Shown in pieces: positions 1,330 to 64,000 of a DNA stretch of 64,000 bases. The notes under the pieces are model-generated. The model was not told the origin of the DNA, did not search any database, and saw only the letters and a program-made list of their open reading frames with translations. Every line of letters begins with the position of its first letter. Positions within the stretch are counted from its first letter, which is position 1. A program made the translations under genes and the position numbers. This DNA is from Eledone cirrhosa (Eukaryota), in assembly GCA_964016885.1 (NCBI GenBank), contig OZ024741.1:176266001-176330000 (forward strand). Direction: 5' to 3'.

Positions 1330-4300
1330 TATTAAAATAACAGATTAAAGTTTAAGCAAAGAATCGCTGCTTTCTCCCTTAACGGGATCTTCTGAAACTA
1401 ACAAAGTTAATCTGTGAACGCAGAAGTGAATATTTCAAAAAACGTTGCAACCGGAGGAAGACAGGAAGACGATACTTTGGTTCGTGGAAACGTTCCCTGG
1501 CAAAGAACGAGAAAAAACGAATATAATACGTCATTATTTGGAGCGGTGAAAAACAATTACACGCAAAGAGAAAACCACGTTTATTGTATAAAAGAAGTTG
1601 TAGACTAATATTCTATTAGGTGGTTCATAGAGACGTTCTCTGGCAATGAACGAAAAAAACGAAGATAATACGTCATATGTGGATCGGTGAGAACAATAGC
1701 ACGCAAAGACAAAACCACGTAAATGGTATAACTGAAGTTGTAGACTAAAATTGTAACTAGGAAATCGAATGATTCTCGGCTTCAGAGTTAAGAATAAAGT
1801 AAATAAAATACAGAGGTAATCGAAATTAAATAATTACATACACGCATCCATATACACAAGCATACGCGAAAACACTCGCCATAGGTATACAAATACACGC
1901 ACGTACACAAAGAAAAACAAAACCCTCACGCCCATACAGAACCCATGCAACGCCTGTACACGCACGCATACGAATGTATACACCAAATACACATACAAAT
2001 ATATATATTCATCTATATATATGTGTTTGCGTGTATACATATAATTAAATAAACGTATATAAATAAATAAATACGTATATAACAAGCGCACACACATACC
2101 TACATGTAAATACACATTTGTTCGGAGATACTTACGTCAACCAAAACACGAAGTACACATATACACACACCCTACATACGTACGAACCCGCATACTCACA
2201 CAGACGCAAAACTCACGTATACACATAACCAAAAACATATGTACCAGAATATAATATATACGCCAAAACACACAATCAAATATACGTACGAGGAAGTATA
2301 CGTACCTTCACAAAACATACAGGTAATATATACTTACCTATACAAGTAATGGTATATATACAAGTAATGGTATAAACATAACATATACAAATATACCACA
2401 TCAAGACGTAAAATATCCGTGTATAGTTCATACTATCCGTTAGGGTATAATGTGGGGCTGTAATACAGGAAAGTGTTGTGCAATTCATGTTTACAAGCCG
2501 AAATTGCCTCAGATTTTTTGTTTAAGATGTGGTCTTTGGCGTAGAGTATTTCCAGAACATCAACGGCGCAGAGGTCACATGGTCTTTTATTTCCGTTATA
2601 CGATCTAGCCCTAGCTAGGATCTCCCAGTGTAACTTATATTGGGTATGGTTGTCTTTTAGACTCCACATATAAGCTGAAAGTGACGTCATATTCCTTCTT
2701 AAAGGGTAACGAAAAGAATGGGTATTCATGTAAAGACGCTGCTTGAATCTATTGGTGGTTAACCCTATCTAGGCCCTACGGGACGTGGGTGTTTCAAACT
2801 TACATCTGTAGACAATGTTACTAGAGTGGCATTTCCCGGATAGGGGGCAGTCAACCCGATTCCTACAATTACAGTTAGTACTAACTACAGGGTTGCAAGT
2901 GTTCCTACGGCTAGGTAGTTTAGCTAAATTTGAGGTGTGATGTTATGTGCAAGGTTAAGAGTCGTAGAGTAAGACATTTTAATAGTATTTCTATTAAACA
3001 TTTTACTATATTTATGTGTAGGGGGAACATGCTTCGTAATAAGGGAGAGGAAGATCTTAGCTAATGGTGTGGCTACCTCCATAGTATATGTTGGGTTATA
3101 CCATATAATGCGTCGGGATCTATTTCTTCTAGGTCTATTCTCGTACTCTGTATATGCTACCTTATCGACAAATCCACTCCGAGCAAGAGCTTCATTGTAA
3201 TATGTGGAATGGTCGTTGAAAATATGCTCGTTAGTAGATAGACGGGAAAGCCTCAAAGAAAAGTTTCTTACCAGGTTCTTGGTTATGCTGGAAGGATGGT
3301 TAGAAAGCTTACTTTTGTAATTAAGCGTATCATTCGGCTTTCTATACGGGTAATGAAAGCCATTCGATAAATTGAGGGTAACGTCGAGGTAATTAACAAC
3401 CGAGAAGTTGGCCTCAACTTGTATGGAGAGGTTGAAGCCTTTAAAGAAGGCTGTGAGTTCTTTTCTGAACCTGCCGCAAGCACGAGGGCCGCACTTAGTC
3501 ATGGTCAAAAGACCATCGTCACGCTACAAACCACCGCCCACGTTGAGGAATTCTTCCTCGATAGAGAAAAGAAGGAATAGGCCGATAAGATCAGTAACCT
3601 CCGCAGAATCACTGGCGCCCATACTCACGTCCAATGGGGTACTATTGGATTTTTTAATCCAAATAGAGTCGTCGAAATTAATCACCGACTTACGGGCATT
3701 GAGGATGACATCAACTTCGAAATCCTTAACCACTGTGAGTGTTTTAGCGAAATTGATAGCTCTAAGGAGGAGTAGTAATTATTGATGTCGAATTGGATAA
3801 AACGGCAATGTTTCTTGTTGCATATGCCGTTGAACCAATCAATCACCATGAAAGAATTGTTCCACAGTGCAAGAGGGGCAAAACTTCTAATTTCAAGTAT
3901 AATTCTATCAAGAATCCTTTTACTAAGACTACCTAAATCGGAATTCGTAGGGTTAATAAGCCGAATAGAAGGGTTGTTCGGAAAATTGGATGTGTCATCC
4001 TTCAGGGTAAAGTGGGGAGAAATAGGGTCCAGAGGTTCAGTCCGGTCCAGGATGTTGAGATCAGAGGTGGTTTTAAACCCAGCATCGTTGATTTCATTAA
4101 TGACGCTCTGATGAGTTTTACGGTAATCCTTAGTTACAGCATTATATAGCAGTTTATGGTAAGTATTGCGCTCCACTTGATATAGATTGCCAGTTTTGTC
4201 GGAATGGACGTGCACGGCATTAGAATCCTTAATATAATGAATTCTATTCTTCAGGTTCTGCTGGAAGGAATTGCTCCTATTCCGAAATGTTATACTCCGT

Positions 4301-4878: not shown

Positions 4879-4913
<35 letters not shown>

Positions 4914-4982
4914 TATGAAGAGAGAAGAAACATTTAGATATAATTAGTAATAAAATGTATCATACCTAAACTGCTCCTAAAT

Positions 4983-5070
4983 TCCTCGACTACGTAGTTT
5001 CGTGGCATAAACAAAAACAATATATCAAAGATATAGGGTCCTTGCGAGGTCTGCCGACTTATCAAGAGGA
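4983..5070 (-). ncRNA. Hammerhead ribozyme, U3-A8 core variant (copy 1)
   Basis: TCCTC-TTGATAA-GTcGGCA..TGCCAC-GAAA-CTACGTAG-TC-GAGGA. Confidence 0.85.
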
Positions 5071-5572
5071 TACCTCATTTTACTAGTCTCAAGAACGCGT
5101 CTACACGACGTGAGAAAGAATCCCAAAAGGCGGAGGGGGAGATAGTCACGCGATATAACGGTCGAGAAACAGAGCTAAGCCTCTTATAACCACGAAGAAA
5201 ATACCACGGAGGCGGAGGGGGTATTCATATCGAGGCCGTAGAAGAGGTAGTGAAGAAGGCGAGAAGTATGAGTAATGGAAGCTTTCCAGTTGTCCCCACA
5301 CTTCAAAGATTGCTCGACCAGAGGGAGTTATTAATATATTTAGAAACACACAGATACATGCGGACACACACATATATACATGAATGCATCCGCACCCAAC
5401 TGTGAGTTAAGGGTGCCAACTTCACCGATGTTGCTCAATGAATGACTGGGACAGACCAATTCAGTTGAACTAGACTGAACCAGTATCAGAGTTAAAAATA
5501 CATTATGAAGAGAGAAGAAACATTTAGATATAATTAGTAATAAAATGTATCATACCTAAACTGCTCCTAAAT

Positions 5573-5660
5573 TCCTCGACTACGTAGTTTCGTGGCATAA
5601 ACAAAAACAATATATCAAAGATATAGGGTCCTTGCGAGGTCTGCCGACTTATCAAGAGGA
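5573..5660 (-). ncRNA. Hammerhead ribozyme, U3-A8 variant (copy 2)
   Basis: Same sequence as copy 1, shifted by 590 bp. Confidence 0.85.
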
Positions 5661-6162
5661 TACCTCATTTTACTAGTCTCAAGAACGCGTCTACACGACG
5701 TGAGAAAGAATCCCAAAAGGCGGAGGGGGAGATAGTCACGCGATATAACGGTCGAGAAACAGAGCTAAGCCTCTTATAACCACGAAGAAAATACCACGGA
5801 GGCGGAGGGGGTATTCATATCGAGGCCGTAGAAGAGGTAGTGAAGAAGGCGAGAAGTATGAGTAATGGAAGCTTTCCAGTTGTCCCCACACTTCAAAGAT
5901 TGCTCGACCAGAGGGAGTTATTAATATATTTAGAAACACACAGATACATGCGGACACACACATATATACATGAATGCATCCGCACCCAACTGTGAGTTAA
6001 GGGTGCCAACTTCACCGATGTTGCTCAATGAATGACTGGGACAGACCAATTCAGTTGAACTAGACTGAACCAGTATCAGAGTTAAAAATACATTATGAAG
6101 AGAGAAGAAACATTTAGATATAATTAGTAATAAAATGTATCATACCTAAACTGCTCCTAAAT

Positions 6163-6250
6163 TCCTCGACTACGTAGTTTCGTGGCATAAACAAAAACAA
6201 TATATCAAAGATATAGGGTCCTTGCGAGGTCTGCCGACTTATCAAGAGGA
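6163..6250 (-). ncRNA. Hammerhead ribozyme, U3-A8 variant (copy 3)
   Basis: Same sequence as copy 1, shifted by 1180 bp. Confidence 0.85.
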
Positions 6251-6731
6251 TACCTCATTTTACTAGTCTCAAGAACGCGTCTACACGACGTGAGAAAGAA
6301 TCCCAAAAGGCGGAGGGGGAGATAGTCACGCGATATAACGGTCGAGAAACAGAGCTAAGCCTCTTATAACCACGAAGAAAATACCACGGAGGCGGAGGGG
6401 GTATTCATATCGAGGCCGTAGAAGAGGTAGTGAAGAAGGCGAGAAGTATGAGTAATGGAAGCTTTCCAGTTGTCCCCACACTTCAAAGATTGCTCGACCA
6501 GAGGGAGTTATTAATATATTTAGAAACACACAGATACATGCGGACACACACATATATATATATCGGCCTCGATATGAATACCCCCTCCGCCTCCGTGGTA
6601 TTTTCTTCGTGGTTATAAGAGGCTTAGCTCTGTTTCTCGACCGTTATATCGCGTGACTATCTCCCCCTCCGCCTTTTGGGATTCTTTCTCACGTCGTGTA
6701 GACGCGTTCTTGAGACTAGTAAAATGAGGTA

Positions 6732-6819
6732 TCCTCTTGATAAGTCGGCAGACCTCGCAAGGACCCTATATCTTTGATATATTGTTTTTGTTTATGCCAC
6801 GAAACTACGTAGTCGAGGA
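6732..6819 (+). ncRNA. Hammerhead ribozyme, U3-A8 variant (copy 4)
   Basis: tcctc ttgataa gtcggca...tgccac gaaa ctacgtag tc gagga read directly on the plus strand. Confidence 0.85.
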
Positions 6820-7321
6820 ATTTAGGAGCAGTTTAGGTATGATACATTTTATTACTAATTATATCTAAATGTTTCTTCTCTCTTCATAATGTATTTTTAA
6901 CTCTGATACTGGTTCAGTCTAGTTCAACTGAATTGGTCTGTCCCAGTCATTCATTGAGCAACATCGGTGAAGTTGGCACCCTTAACTCACAGTTGGGTGC
7001 GGATGCATTCATGTATATATGTGTGTGTCCGCATGTATCTGTGTGTTTCTAAATATATTAATAACTCCCTCTGGTCGAGCAATCTTTGAAGTGTGGGGAC
7101 AACTGGAAAGCTTCCATTACTCATACTTCTCGCCTTCTTCACTACCTCTTCTACGGCCTCGATATGAATACCCCCTCCGCCTCCGTGGTATTTTCTTCGT
7201 GGTTATAAGAGGCTTAGCTCTGTTTCTCGACCGTTATATCGCGTGACTATCTCCCCCTCCGCCTTTTGGGATTCTTTCTCACGTCGTGTAGACGCGTTCT
7301 TGAGACTAGTAAAATGAGGTA

Positions 7322-7409
7322 TCCTCTTGATAAGTCGGCAGACCTCGCAAGGACCCTATATCTTTGATATATTGTTTTTGTTTATGCCACGAAACTACGT
7401 AGTCGAGGA
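7322..7409 (+). ncRNA. Hammerhead ribozyme, U3-A8 variant (copy 5)
   Basis: Same sequence as copy 4, shifted by 590 bp. Confidence 0.85.
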
Positions 7410-7639
7410 ATTTAGGAGCAGTTTAGGTATGATACATTTTATTACTAATTATATCTAAATGTTTCTTCTCTCTTCATAATGTATTTTTAACTCTGATACT
7501 GGTTCAGTCTAGTTCAACTGAATTGGTCTGTCCCAGTCATTCATTGAGCAACATCGGTGAAGTTGGCACCCTTAACTCACAGTTGGGTGCGGATGCATTC
7601 ATGTATATATGTGTGTGTCCGCATGTATCTGTGTGTTTC

Positions 7640-7740
<101 letters not shown>

Positions 7741-11527: not shown

Positions 11528-13724
<2,197 letters not shown>

Positions 13725-23718: not shown

Positions 23719-23723
<5 letters not shown>

Positions 23724-23900
23724 AACAAGTAAGACCCCGACGGCTGAGCTCAAGCCGTTTCGACGGCTAATTCTGTCGAAACAGCTTGAGCTCAGCCGTC
23801 GGGGTCTTACTTGTTCCTATTACCCACTCTACTACCCTAAGTATTGAGTACTTTGGTGCGTTATGGTCCACCTGGTTCCTGACCACATTTCTTTCGTTAT
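23719..23900. repeat. Short hairpin (~46-bp arms, 23719-23820) plus a tail shared with 12678-12730
   Basis: taggaacaagtaagaccccgacggctgagctcaag / cttgagctcagccgtcggggtcttacttgttccta. Confidence 0.8.
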
Positions 23901-24107
23901 ATATATATATATATAGATATATATATAGATATATATATATAGTAATAATAATAAATTTAAAGACTAAAATCCAAAGAGGGCTCGATAAGGACAAATATAT
24001 ATCAAATATATAAGAACCCTAGTGCACATATTTCAGAAGATCCCGTTAAGAGTGAAAGCCGCGATTCTTTGCTTAAACTTTAATCTGTTATTTTAATATA
24101 TATATAT

Positions 24108-25511: not shown

Positions 25512-25910
25512 GTAAGGACTAGGTTAGCTAGGGTGAAAAAATACTAACTACAGCAATATGGTTTGTCAGAATTAATTGCCAGGCTGCTATTTTTAGTGGC
25601 ACGAGATTTCTAGACGAGCTGGGTTCCGGAGACACGTGCGCTATTTCATATCGCACACAATTCAGTCTTCTAATAGTTTTTAGAAGTGGAAAGATCGCTA
25701 ATTTCTCAACAACTACTGAGGAGCAGCGAAACATGTTGACTTCACTTAATAAGATGTTGCGAAACAGTTTTCAAAAAAACTGTCTAGTTGTTACCAGGCG
25801 TTTGCCCGAAATAGGTCTGTTATTTTTCTTAATTTACTACTTAAAATTAAGCCTGACAAACCATATTGCTGTAGTTAGTATTTTTTCACCCTAGCTAACC
25901 TAGTCCTTAC
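25512..25910. mobile_element. MITE-like element with perfect ~58-bp inverted termini
   Basis: gtaaggactaggttagctagggtgaaaaaatactaactacagcaatatggtttgtcag and its exact reverse complement at ~25853-25910. Confidence 0.85.
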
Positions 25911-31604: not shown

Positions 31605-32151
31605 TGATACAGTATCGGTAGAGGATCGGACGCCATGCTTTCCAGAATAGTTATGCCCCTTTACGGTCTGAGTTCAAATCCCGTCGAGGTTAACTTTTCC
31701 TTTCATCCTTACGGGGTGGATAAAATAAAGTATCAGTAATGCACTAGTTAATTGCTGGCCTTGTGCCAATTGTAGAAACAATTATATAGGGACAAGGCCA
31801 GCAATTTTGGAGGAAGGGACTGTCGATTAAATCAAGCCCAGTGCGTGAAAGGTACTTTATTTTATCGACCCCGTAAAGATGAAAGGCAAATTAACCTCGG
31901 TGGGATTTGAACTCAGATCATGGCGTCCGACTGCTTTCATTGTTAACCACAAGGGTGAGGGCGGTGGATTAGTAGTATCGGTAGAGGGTCGGATGCCATG
32001 CTTTGCAGCAAAGAGTTACGTCCCTTTATGGTCTGATTTCAAATCCCGCCGAGGTTAACTTTGCCTTTCATCCTTACGGGGGCGACACAATAAAGTACCA
32101 GTAATACAATGGGATAATTGCTGGCCTTGTGCCAAAAGTAGAAACAATTAT
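31605..32151. mobile_element. Cluster of three SINE copies (31605-31785 +, 31790-31930 -, 31958-32151 +)
   Basis: Same SINE family; the last copy is flanked by the 14-bp TSD ttaaccacaagggt. Confidence 0.85.
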
Positions 32152-62365: not shown

Positions 62366-62656
62366 TTAACGTTGAATTATCTACTATGTTAAAAAGTATA
62401 TTTAATTTTATAGTTTAAAACTATTACATTTTAATCATATTGTTATTGATTAATTATATATGTAATTGATTAATTATATATGTAATTGATTAATTATATA
62501 TATGTATTTGATTAATTATACATTAATAAATAATTGCAGTTACTGGTGGCTGTATATATTATTCAAAGCTTCTAATCTATTGTAAGACTGTATTCGTTGA
62601 GTAATCATCGAACCATATTAATCTTTGGTCATATATATATATATATATATATACAA

Positions 62657-62836
62657 TAATTGTTTCTACTTTAGGCACAAGGCCAGCAATCACCCAGTGC
62701 ATTACGGGTACTTTATTTTATCGACCCCGTAAGGATGAAAGGCAAAGTCAACCTCGGCGGGATTTGAACTCAGATCATAAAGGGACGTAACTATGCTGGA
62801 AAGCATGGCGTCCGACCCTCTACCGATACTGCCAAT
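62657..62836 (-). mobile_element. tRNA-derived SINE
   Basis: Same family as 58553-58742. Confidence 0.85.
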
Positions 62837-63105
62837 AATGAGAGGTATACAGATATATGTGTATACATACATATACATGTATATATAAACATATATTTTT
62901 CACAAGTATGTGAGATTGTACGTTGTCGACCTTAACCAGTGTTGCTCTATGATTATGAGAGACAAGATAATCGAAATAATTAAATTGACACAATATCAGA
63001 GTTATGTAAAATACTATAAAAAGGAATAATATTCTCCCTCCGCCTTTCTGAGATTTTCTCGCATGCTACTGACGTATGTAGTTAGGGCTCTTTCCCCTGA
63101 GGGGC

Positions 63106-63196
63106 TCCCTTGATAAGCTGGCTTACCTCACAACAATGTTACATATCTATGATATAACATATTTGCATAGTGACCAGCGAAACTGTAAAGTCGGGA
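63106..63196 (+). ncRNA. Hammerhead ribozyme, U3-A8 variant, diverged relative of the 590-bp unit HHR
   Basis: TCCC-TTGATAA-GCTGG..CCAGC-GAAA-CTgtaaAG-TC-GGGA; upstream ccctccgccttt motif and downstream aggtat shared with the 590-bp unit. Confidence 0.8.
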
Positions 63197-63241
63197 CTTA
63201 AGAAAAAAATAGGTATATCGTATCTATTATTCCTTTATATA

Positions 63242-63272
<31 letters not shown>

Positions 63273-63274
63273 TT

Positions 63275-63420
63275 ATTATAAGAACAGATTAAAGTTCAAG
63301 CAAAGAATGACTGCTTTCACCCCTACCAGGATCTTCTGATTTCAGAAACTGATTTTCAAAAGATCCCGTTAAGGGTGAAAGCAGCAATTCTTTGCTTAAA
63401 CTTTAATCTGTTCTTATAAT
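63275..63420. mobile_element. Mini foldback made of two 3' termini of the 1330-4380 PLE family
   Basis: attataagaacagattaaagt.. / ..actttaatctgttcttataat; arms match 1335-1398. Confidence 0.8.
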
Positions 63421-63460
63421 ACATATTTGCTTTATGGGTTTATATATATATATTTATATA

Positions 63461-63780
63461 TAATAGAAAACGAAAAATCAGTGATGCATCTGAACTCAGT
63501 TTATTGTGAGTTACAGTTGTTTCTCCGGCGGACAGCTCGAGTTTGATTCTGGACCCGCATGTTCGACGGACACGTCTAAATGATTTCGGTGCATATTCTC
63601 TCAGTCAGAAAATAAGCTCCGAAATCATTAAACGTGTCCGTCGAACCTGCGGGTCCAGAATCAGACAGATCCACACAATGATCCACACAATGATCACACC
63701 TCGAGCTGTCCGCCGTCGAGACAATTGTAACACACAATAAATTTAGTTCAGATGCATCACTGATTTTTCGTTTTCTATTA
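63461..63780. mobile_element. Foldback with ~135-bp arms and a degenerate CCG-type HHR (63634-63733)
   Basis: taatagaaaacgaaaaatcagtgatgcatctgaact / agttcagatgcatcactgatttttcgttttctatta; GTGT-CCGTCGA..GAgA-CAATTG-TA-ACAC. Confidence 0.7.
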
Positions 63781-63847
63781 TATCATACTCTGCTCTGTAA
63801 GTGCTCAACCGGCATACGGCCTATGGAAGTATCTTAGCTGCCATCAG

Positions 63848-63964
<117 letters not shown>

Positions 63965-64000
63965 CCTTATCGAGCCCTCTTCGGATTGTAGTCTTCACAT

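Follow-up and report, generated by a model that had tools for sequence, protein, structure and literature searches.

The window analysed here, 64,000 nucleotides of Eledone cirrhosa DNA, contains a hammerhead motif near its end (63106–63196, plus strand) and homologous motifs in a 590-bp repeat. Both are of the U3–A8 type, with TTGATAA instead of CTGATGA as the core. The locus raises the question of what these elements are, whether their ribozyme structure is under selection and what has spread them. An earlier note had described the two hammerheads, and its sequence statements were all correct when the coordinates were re-read, including the common core, the CCCTCCGCCTTT block upstream and AGGTAT downstream.

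The 63-kb copy belongs to a family termed B, and the 590-bp repeat represents family A. A type I hammerhead motif was recognised in the 63-kb copy by pattern, descriptor, minimum free energy (MFE) fold and alignment. Read from the sequence, it consists of helix I (TCCC, 63106–63109, with GGGA, 63193–63196), the core parts TTGATAA (63110–63116; U3 at 63110, A8 at 63115) and GAAA (63179–63182), a long helix II (GCTGG, 63117–63121, with CCAGC, 63174–63178), helix III (63182–63191) and a GTC ending at 63192, with the predicted cut 3′ of C 63192. The conserved CCCTCCGCCTTT block (63036–63047, plus strand) is the second of two such blocks per full unit and occurs in the 590-bp unit at 6665 and 7255; a promoter role for it would be a guess. 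Located 3′ of the cut, AG/GTAT (63211–63216, plus strand) resembles a 5′ splice donor. AGGTAT is present at 6835 and 7425 in the 590-bp unit, and G/GTA in 30 of 34 aligned family representatives. Two contigs of run X6, the kind of which is uncertain, exit the unit exactly past 6836, at the equivalent site between 6836 and 6837, a mere hint of splice-donor use.

Bare TTGATAA was at chance level in the window (22 observed, 23.4 expected). A strict type I descriptor gave two matches in the 64 kb, 63106–63196 and a motif at 25716–25784 with the core CTGAGGA and an 8-bp helix I; the 590-bp unit escapes this descriptor because of a bulge in its motif. The MFE fold of 63106–63196 displayed the three-way junction at a z of −1.27, not significant by itself, and single-strand folds were no better than those of shuffled sequences (z −0.4 to −1.4).

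The earlier note had also observed that the stems of the two hammerheads differ yet still pair, and had taken this compensatory change as a sign of selection on structure. The pairing is correct, but two sequences alone are thin evidence of covariation: a clean two-sided change was found in only one helix I pair, and the bulge of the 590-bp unit puts the helix II arms out of step. With further families the argument gained ground. Thirty-four hand-picked family representatives (26 U3–A8 and 8 C3–G8), gathered through patterns requiring paired cores, were aligned. Under the hammerhead structure, 87% of the cells were paired and both sides changed in 12 of 16 pairs. Pairing reached 86%, 81% and 91% in helices I, II and III, respectively, compared with 34–48% in slid controls; two C3–G8 rows contain gaps within helix I, and only part of helix II is in register. 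The covariation score was 0.375, compared with 0.188 for shuffled and at most 0.117 for slid alignments, and was reached by 0 of 500 shuffles, a test inflated by the kinship of the rows. Three helices with covariation thus surround the core, although an unguided RNAalifold consensus recovered helix III alone. UGA, A9, G10.1–C11.1, GAAA and GU were invariant, while N7 took all four letters. The core followed YUGANRA...GAAA...UH with a Watson–Crick 3–8 pair (UA in 26 and CG in 8 of the 34 rows, which had been collected by paired patterns). With these families included, the alignment points to selection on hammerhead structure.

Helix III is a 10-nt palindrome, ACTACGTAGT in family A and ACTGTACAGT in family B, and its four inner letters differ between the two. 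The earlier note had overlooked this feature, which marks the dimeric type of hammerhead. The inner palindrome pairs showed two-sided change in 10 of the 34 aligned rows each. ACTGTACAGT was kept in 42 of 46 anchored family B matches; two matches, including the 63-kb copy, had A for C, and two were unrelated. The palindromic helix III/loop 3 of Penelope-like element (PLE) dimeric hammerheads is therefore present in families A and B and disrupted at 63182–63191, where the A at 63188 replaces the C of the family and weakens the calculated self-duplex from −13.4 to −1.8 kcal/mol. As a single truncated arm pair with a broken palindrome, the 63-kb copy would be a poor choice for an assay.

The 3–8 pair was followed through the 3.0-Gb Eledone cirrhosa genome by pattern matching. 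For U3–A8, the pattern TTGATAAG-N45–75-CGAAAC-N6-GT gave at least 7,653 matches (12 in the reversed control), a lower bound because N7 was fixed as T, and nearly all of the 100 matches listed were family A; further patterns revealed more U3–A8 families, with T, C, A or G at N7. C3–G8 hammerheads of like build gave 2,418 matches (control, 23), with tandem periods of 483–486 bp. The unpaired cores were rare: 114 matches for C3–A8 (control, 36) and 266 for U3–G8 (control, 55). Judged by eye, the 100 C3–A8 matches listed were scattered singletons and unrelated repeats, and most of the 100 U3–G8 matches listed belonged to a single unrelated repeat that lacks helix II, the hammerhead members being scattered singletons. 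These counts support that paired cores, U3–A8 and C3–G8, were amplified and that C3–A8 and U3–G8 hammerheads were not. When the core was anchored from upstream, TTGATAA was found in 150 of 151 matches to family A and in 42 of 44 to family B, some copies being counted twice as the loci overlap. In a tree built with columns 3 and 8 masked, two changes of the 3–8 pair were needed, one not being excluded; R-scape would have low power at this pair because the swap amounts to only one or two events in the lineage. Loci L261 (U3–A8) and L130 (C3–G8), 72% identical over 353 nt, form a natural sister pair with the double swap.

Standard searches overlook the motif, as the earlier note had expected. A scan with Rfam models, at the gathering cut-off and at E 10, matched no hammerhead family. 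The Rfam models do not reach this form with its long helix II and U3–A8 pair, and the hammerhead class is set by core and topology rather than by an Rfam score. Scans with CUGANGA only or with Rfam would thus overlook the larger share of the long-helix-II hammerheads of this genome (at least 7,653, compared with 2,418). The novelty that the note had implied for U3–A8 does not stand, as the core variant itself is already known, and so is the element class. C3–G8 covaries to U3–A8 in nature, and the variant is active in vitro (Perreault et al. 2011, PMC3088659). The covariation seen here is like that of those natural hammerheads; what differs is that U3–A8 has become fixed here, both in an intact autonomous element and in the most numerous of the long-helix-II families of the genome. 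U3–A8 hammerheads of the Cercyon PLEs of Schistosoma mansoni had their own search descriptor, with approximately 1,300 matches, as well as a palindromic helix III and low dimer activity (Cervera and de la Peña 2014, PMC4209133). The hammerheads described here share with them the type I topology, U3–A8, G10.1–C11.1, a short helix I, a long helix II and the palindromic helix III, along with many families per genome and opposite-strand pairs 100–700 bp apart. Unlike in that study, helix II is approximately 50 nt longer with an internal loop, the helix III palindrome has 10 nt, G10.1 follows A9 without an extra base, and the carriers are non-coding tandem units of 580–600 bp.

The units of family A (590 bp) and family B (583 bp) are homologous over their whole length (62% across 569 nt; E 6e-33). 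On first look, the genome contained 710 family B and 375 family A candidates, dispersed as monomers up to 7-mers. The units are non-coding, with no long frame in the three plus-strand frames checked for family A, and each carries one type I hammerhead. In these respects the units resemble, at the DNA level, the metazoan non-LTR retrozymes (PMC7229834; Li, Clavereau and Pollet 2026, 10.64898/2026.07.22.740005), which are likewise low in GC and non-coding, carry a single type I hammerhead per tandem unit, are dispersed as monomers to 7-mers and co-occur with autonomous PLEs. The unit exceeds the 170–400 nt of Cervera and de la Peña 2020 (PMC7229834) and lies within the 51–972 bp of the 2026 preprint. 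Unlike metazoan retrozymes, the present units have a U3–A8 core, a donor-like site past the cut and no pLTR homology to the PLEs compared. The preprint regards animal retrozymes as non-autonomous PLE derivatives on the basis of co-occurrence and pLTR homology, and reports that eight of nine predicted dimers failed to cleave; its text includes no mollusc and mentions neither tail nor splice. Retrozymes, PLEs as their likely yet unproven mobilisers and the 3–8 pair are treated in PMC7229834, PMC7761336, PMC6765202 and PMC3884650. Families A and B were not found in the literature searched, though the supplements of PMC4209133 and of the preprint could list such families.

Further evidence came from the insertions in the window. 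The plus arm of the family B copy (63033–63253; 92% identical to a natural unit in L013) is 5′-truncated and ends in (TA)n at a site termed E1, approximately 59 nt past the cut. It lies 5′ to 5′ with an inverted arm (62833–63031, minus strand; 96.5%) that ends at a second site, E2, approximately 230 nt past the cut, with no (TA)n following in this copy. In the same way, a family A arm of 2.8 units (4908–6561, minus strand) runs into (TA)n from E1, which here lies 80 nt beyond the cut. An arm of 1.8 units (6564–7648, plus strand), with hammerheads at 6732–6819 and 7322–7409 (both plus strand), runs into (TA)n from E2, 244 nt beyond the cut. A second family A insertion (11635–12682, minus strand), 97% identical to the first, ends at E1. 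Several other repeats were observed nearby. A dispersed SINE-like repeat (62656–62831, and inverted and 90% alike at 31610–31785) adjoins the family B copy at its E2 end. A near-perfect hairpin between (TA)n runs (63285–63425) recurs near L003, L039, L123, L154 and L334 and resembles a very small two-arm insertion belonging to a further family; miRNA-model Rfam matches at 63290–63400 were rejected as merely reflecting this hairpin. A second inverted-repeat element (63460–63785) contains an internal 12-bp tandem at 63668–63699, and a (TA)n-flanked fragment (63960–64000 and 23955–24000; likewise in L006, L039 and L123) may be the terminal part of a further PLE-type family.

The two ends recurred across the genome. 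Among 162 complete family A arms, from loci picked by similarity or an intact motif and not at random, 86 ended at E1 (80 nt beyond the predicted cut), 70 at E2 (approximately 245 nt) and 6 elsewhere; 150 ran into AT repeats. Of the 53 inverted 5′-to-5′ pairs, 48 were E1+E2, one was E1+E1, none was E2+E2 and four had an unclassified end; independent choice of ends would yield E1+E2 in only about half. Family B arms had 33 E1 and 26 E2 ends, and its 35 pairs comprised 21 E1+E2, one E1+E1 and one unclassified; the remaining 12, with both ends elsewhere, were taken as low-complexity matches and set aside without individual check. Opposite arms of one insertion differed by 0.8% and separate insertions by 2.7% (at least one insertion counted twice); both arms of one insertion derive from one source. 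In run X3, which looks genomic, loose ends into AT were found at 6894 and 7058. Runs X1 and X2 each gave one clean cyclic unit contig (620/621 nt, depth approximately 8, aligned to 6750–7330), under other organism codes than X3; tandem DNA, circles or contamination fit these alike. A look-up for RNA data sets that contain the unit listed none.

These ends bear on the possibility that the families are satellites that arose when old pLTR fragments were amplified locally in the DNA by unequal crossover, with an inherited, unselected hammerhead. Units are more alike within arrays than between arrays, and such a route is suggested for arrays in the 2026 preprint (10.64898/2026.07.22.740005). The arrays are, however, short, partial and dispersed across many contigs, compensatory changes build up among the non-coding families themselves, and the arrays stop in (TA)n at two exact phases, one per arm. 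The fixed ends largely refute this origin, which we regard as very improbable.

A mobiliser of the LINE type (L1, RTE or CR1) using twin priming is similarly hard to credit. L1 twin priming produces inverted 5′ arms, like those seen here, and the fetched loci are rich in LINE fragments. Against this, both arms end at internal unit sites, outward into (TA)n, like the autonomous PLE of the same genome, and neither poly(A) nor a LINE-like 3′ tail was seen. Families A and B show partial tandems, an inverted 5′-truncated arm, a tail at one end and microsatellite targets, the marks of a non-autonomous PLE, in line with the one-ended tail, inverted 5′-truncated copy, tandem structure, microsatellite bias and non-autonomous Chlamys elements in PMC8557442. 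In Poseidon PAc of Anolis, the tail results from two internal reverse transcription (RT) start sites that lie 3′ of the hammerhead (Frangieh et al. 2024, PMC11167929). The present insertions share this arrangement, the AT-rich targets and the extension of both strands. The tail is approximately 165 nt in family A, 170 nt in family B and 80 nt in the autonomous family, compared with 30–40 bp in Poseidon PAc, and the two arms almost always differ in start site, while the strands were alike in Poseidon PAc in vitro.

Candidate protein sources were present in the genome. Locus L254 contains a decayed RT and GIY-YIG element with a U3–A8 motif in its 3′ repeat, and its family carries TTGA[C/A/T]AA in 34 of 38 cores. 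At 21 of 29 loci chosen by the long end (E2), the opposite arm ends at the short end. A younger autonomous subfamily has uninterrupted 784-aa frames, 3,531-bp tandem units and the core TTGAGAA. Pfam and PDB searches of the 784-aa frame gave no match; among its Atlas neighbours (0.96–0.99), some of the members bear HTH_animal, GIY-YIG and RVT_1, and from these and its recognisable motifs we take it to be Penelope-like. The same searches with other PLE frames gave nothing beyond a sub-threshold RVT_1 in L131. This intact element has the core and arm design of families A and B. No nucleotide homology of A or B was detected to the two U3–A8 autonomous sequences compared, so an origin of A and B from the pLTR of the autonomous element is unsupported. 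In one of 53 cases, a lone family A arm was fused 5′ to 5′ to the E2 tail (long 3′ end) of the U3–A8 autonomous family (12679–12734, plus strand); this is suggestive, though it is a single case and the two families have (TA)n targets in common.

The window also contains a small two-arm insertion of the autonomous U3–A8 Penelope-like family in (TA)n (23719–23903, strand unassigned), with the 3′ half of a hammerhead, an E1 arm and an E2 arm, and diverged pieces of a Penelope-like ORF (3573–4047, minus strand; 73–75%). In the autonomous family, short insertions (L282–L310) are mostly hairpins with the junction within hammerhead helix II, as if reverse transcription had stalled or switched template there. 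PLE frames near hammerheads in L123, L131, L137, L141, L272, L274 and L277 were considered as partners and judged to be neighbours because (TA)n targets are shared. Other PLE families have C3–G8 minimal hammerheads with a short helix II (L131:2410–2460 and L141:4960–5060, by eye). Two C3–G8 motifs lie 2,780 bp apart in L121 (G000:C1:58194149 and 58196929), with no PLE frame of at least 170 aa listed between them.

Whether the hammerhead acts as a ribozyme during this mobilisation can be approached from the arms. The predicted cleavage site is spanned by 138 of 162 family A arms, and their 5′ ends are scattered. An apparent excess of 5′ ends at the cut (13 of 88 arms in the first 30 nt) faded in 162 arms and was rejected because part of the 5′ stops proved to be BLAST breaks. 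A comparison of shared variants between circle and multimer (48 of 64 arrays with a shared-type difference) was uninformative because the compared stretch contains the E1 boundary, and a figure for variation in the core relative to the rest, from the same analysis, was discarded as biased by the anchor. Penelope-type mobilisation might therefore use uncleaved read-through multimers, with the hammerhead folded only for protein recognition. This would fit the arms that span the cut and the lack of a pile-up (17 of 156 stops, compared with 6.5% expected, p 0.026, approximately 6 of the 17 being BLAST breaks in diverged subfamilies). It would also fit PMC11167929, in which 3–8 rescue was demonstrated and hammerhead mutants inserted normally in vitro, the hammerhead being dispensable for insertion. 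Yet a circle yields a like crossing pattern, the catalytic positions are invariant in the alignment while N7 varies freely, and positions 3 and 8 change only as a pair. We consider a non-catalytic hammerhead unlikely, if less so than a satellite or LINE origin.

In our best explanation, which we hold with good confidence, the 63-kb element and the 590-bp repeat represent two non-coding tandem families with U3–A8 hammerhead motifs, likely non-autonomous retrozyme passengers of a Penelope-like protein. Spread by Penelope-like retrotransposons is likely because the insertion ends suggest it. A tandem locus would be transcribed, and two hammerheads would pair via the palindromic helix III and cleave, U3–A8 preserving the 3–8 pair. 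An RNA of more than one unit, either an uncleaved multimer or a re-ligated circle, may then be bound by a Penelope-type RT/GIY-YIG protein that would nick both strands of a (TA)n target. Reverse transcription would begin internally, at E1 on one strand and at E2 on the other, and the two truncated cDNAs would be joined head to head. The copy at 63033–63253 would be a dead-on-arrival product that has since lost its palindrome.

A more far-reaching reading is offered tentatively, as we lean slightly against it. The insertion anatomy may be direct evidence that Penelope machinery copies animal retrozymes from multi-unit or circular RNA by a rule of two different internal start sites per integration, with a separate site for each target strand (as in 48 of the 49 family A pairs with both ends classified). 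A further possibility is that the unit is a self-contained mini-gene (GC block, U3–A8 hammerhead and splice donor), in which the donor would splice into downstream sequence and the dimeric hammerhead would choose between transcript and mobile circle. The rule is absent from the text of the papers cited here, and the texts of PMC7229834 and 10.64898/2026.07.22.740005 do not analyse two fixed ends per insertion.

Families A and B are new families of a known class with an unusually clean Penelope-type insertion anatomy. Their value as a test system lies in the combination, in one genome, of a very young non-coding family (97–100% identity) and an intact Penelope-like protein, together with exact predicted RT start sites and, in L261 and L130, a natural pair equivalent to the double swap. 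They bear on the machinery that mobilises animal retrozymes and on the role of PLE hammerheads, both named in PMC7761336 and 10.64898/2026.07.22.740005.
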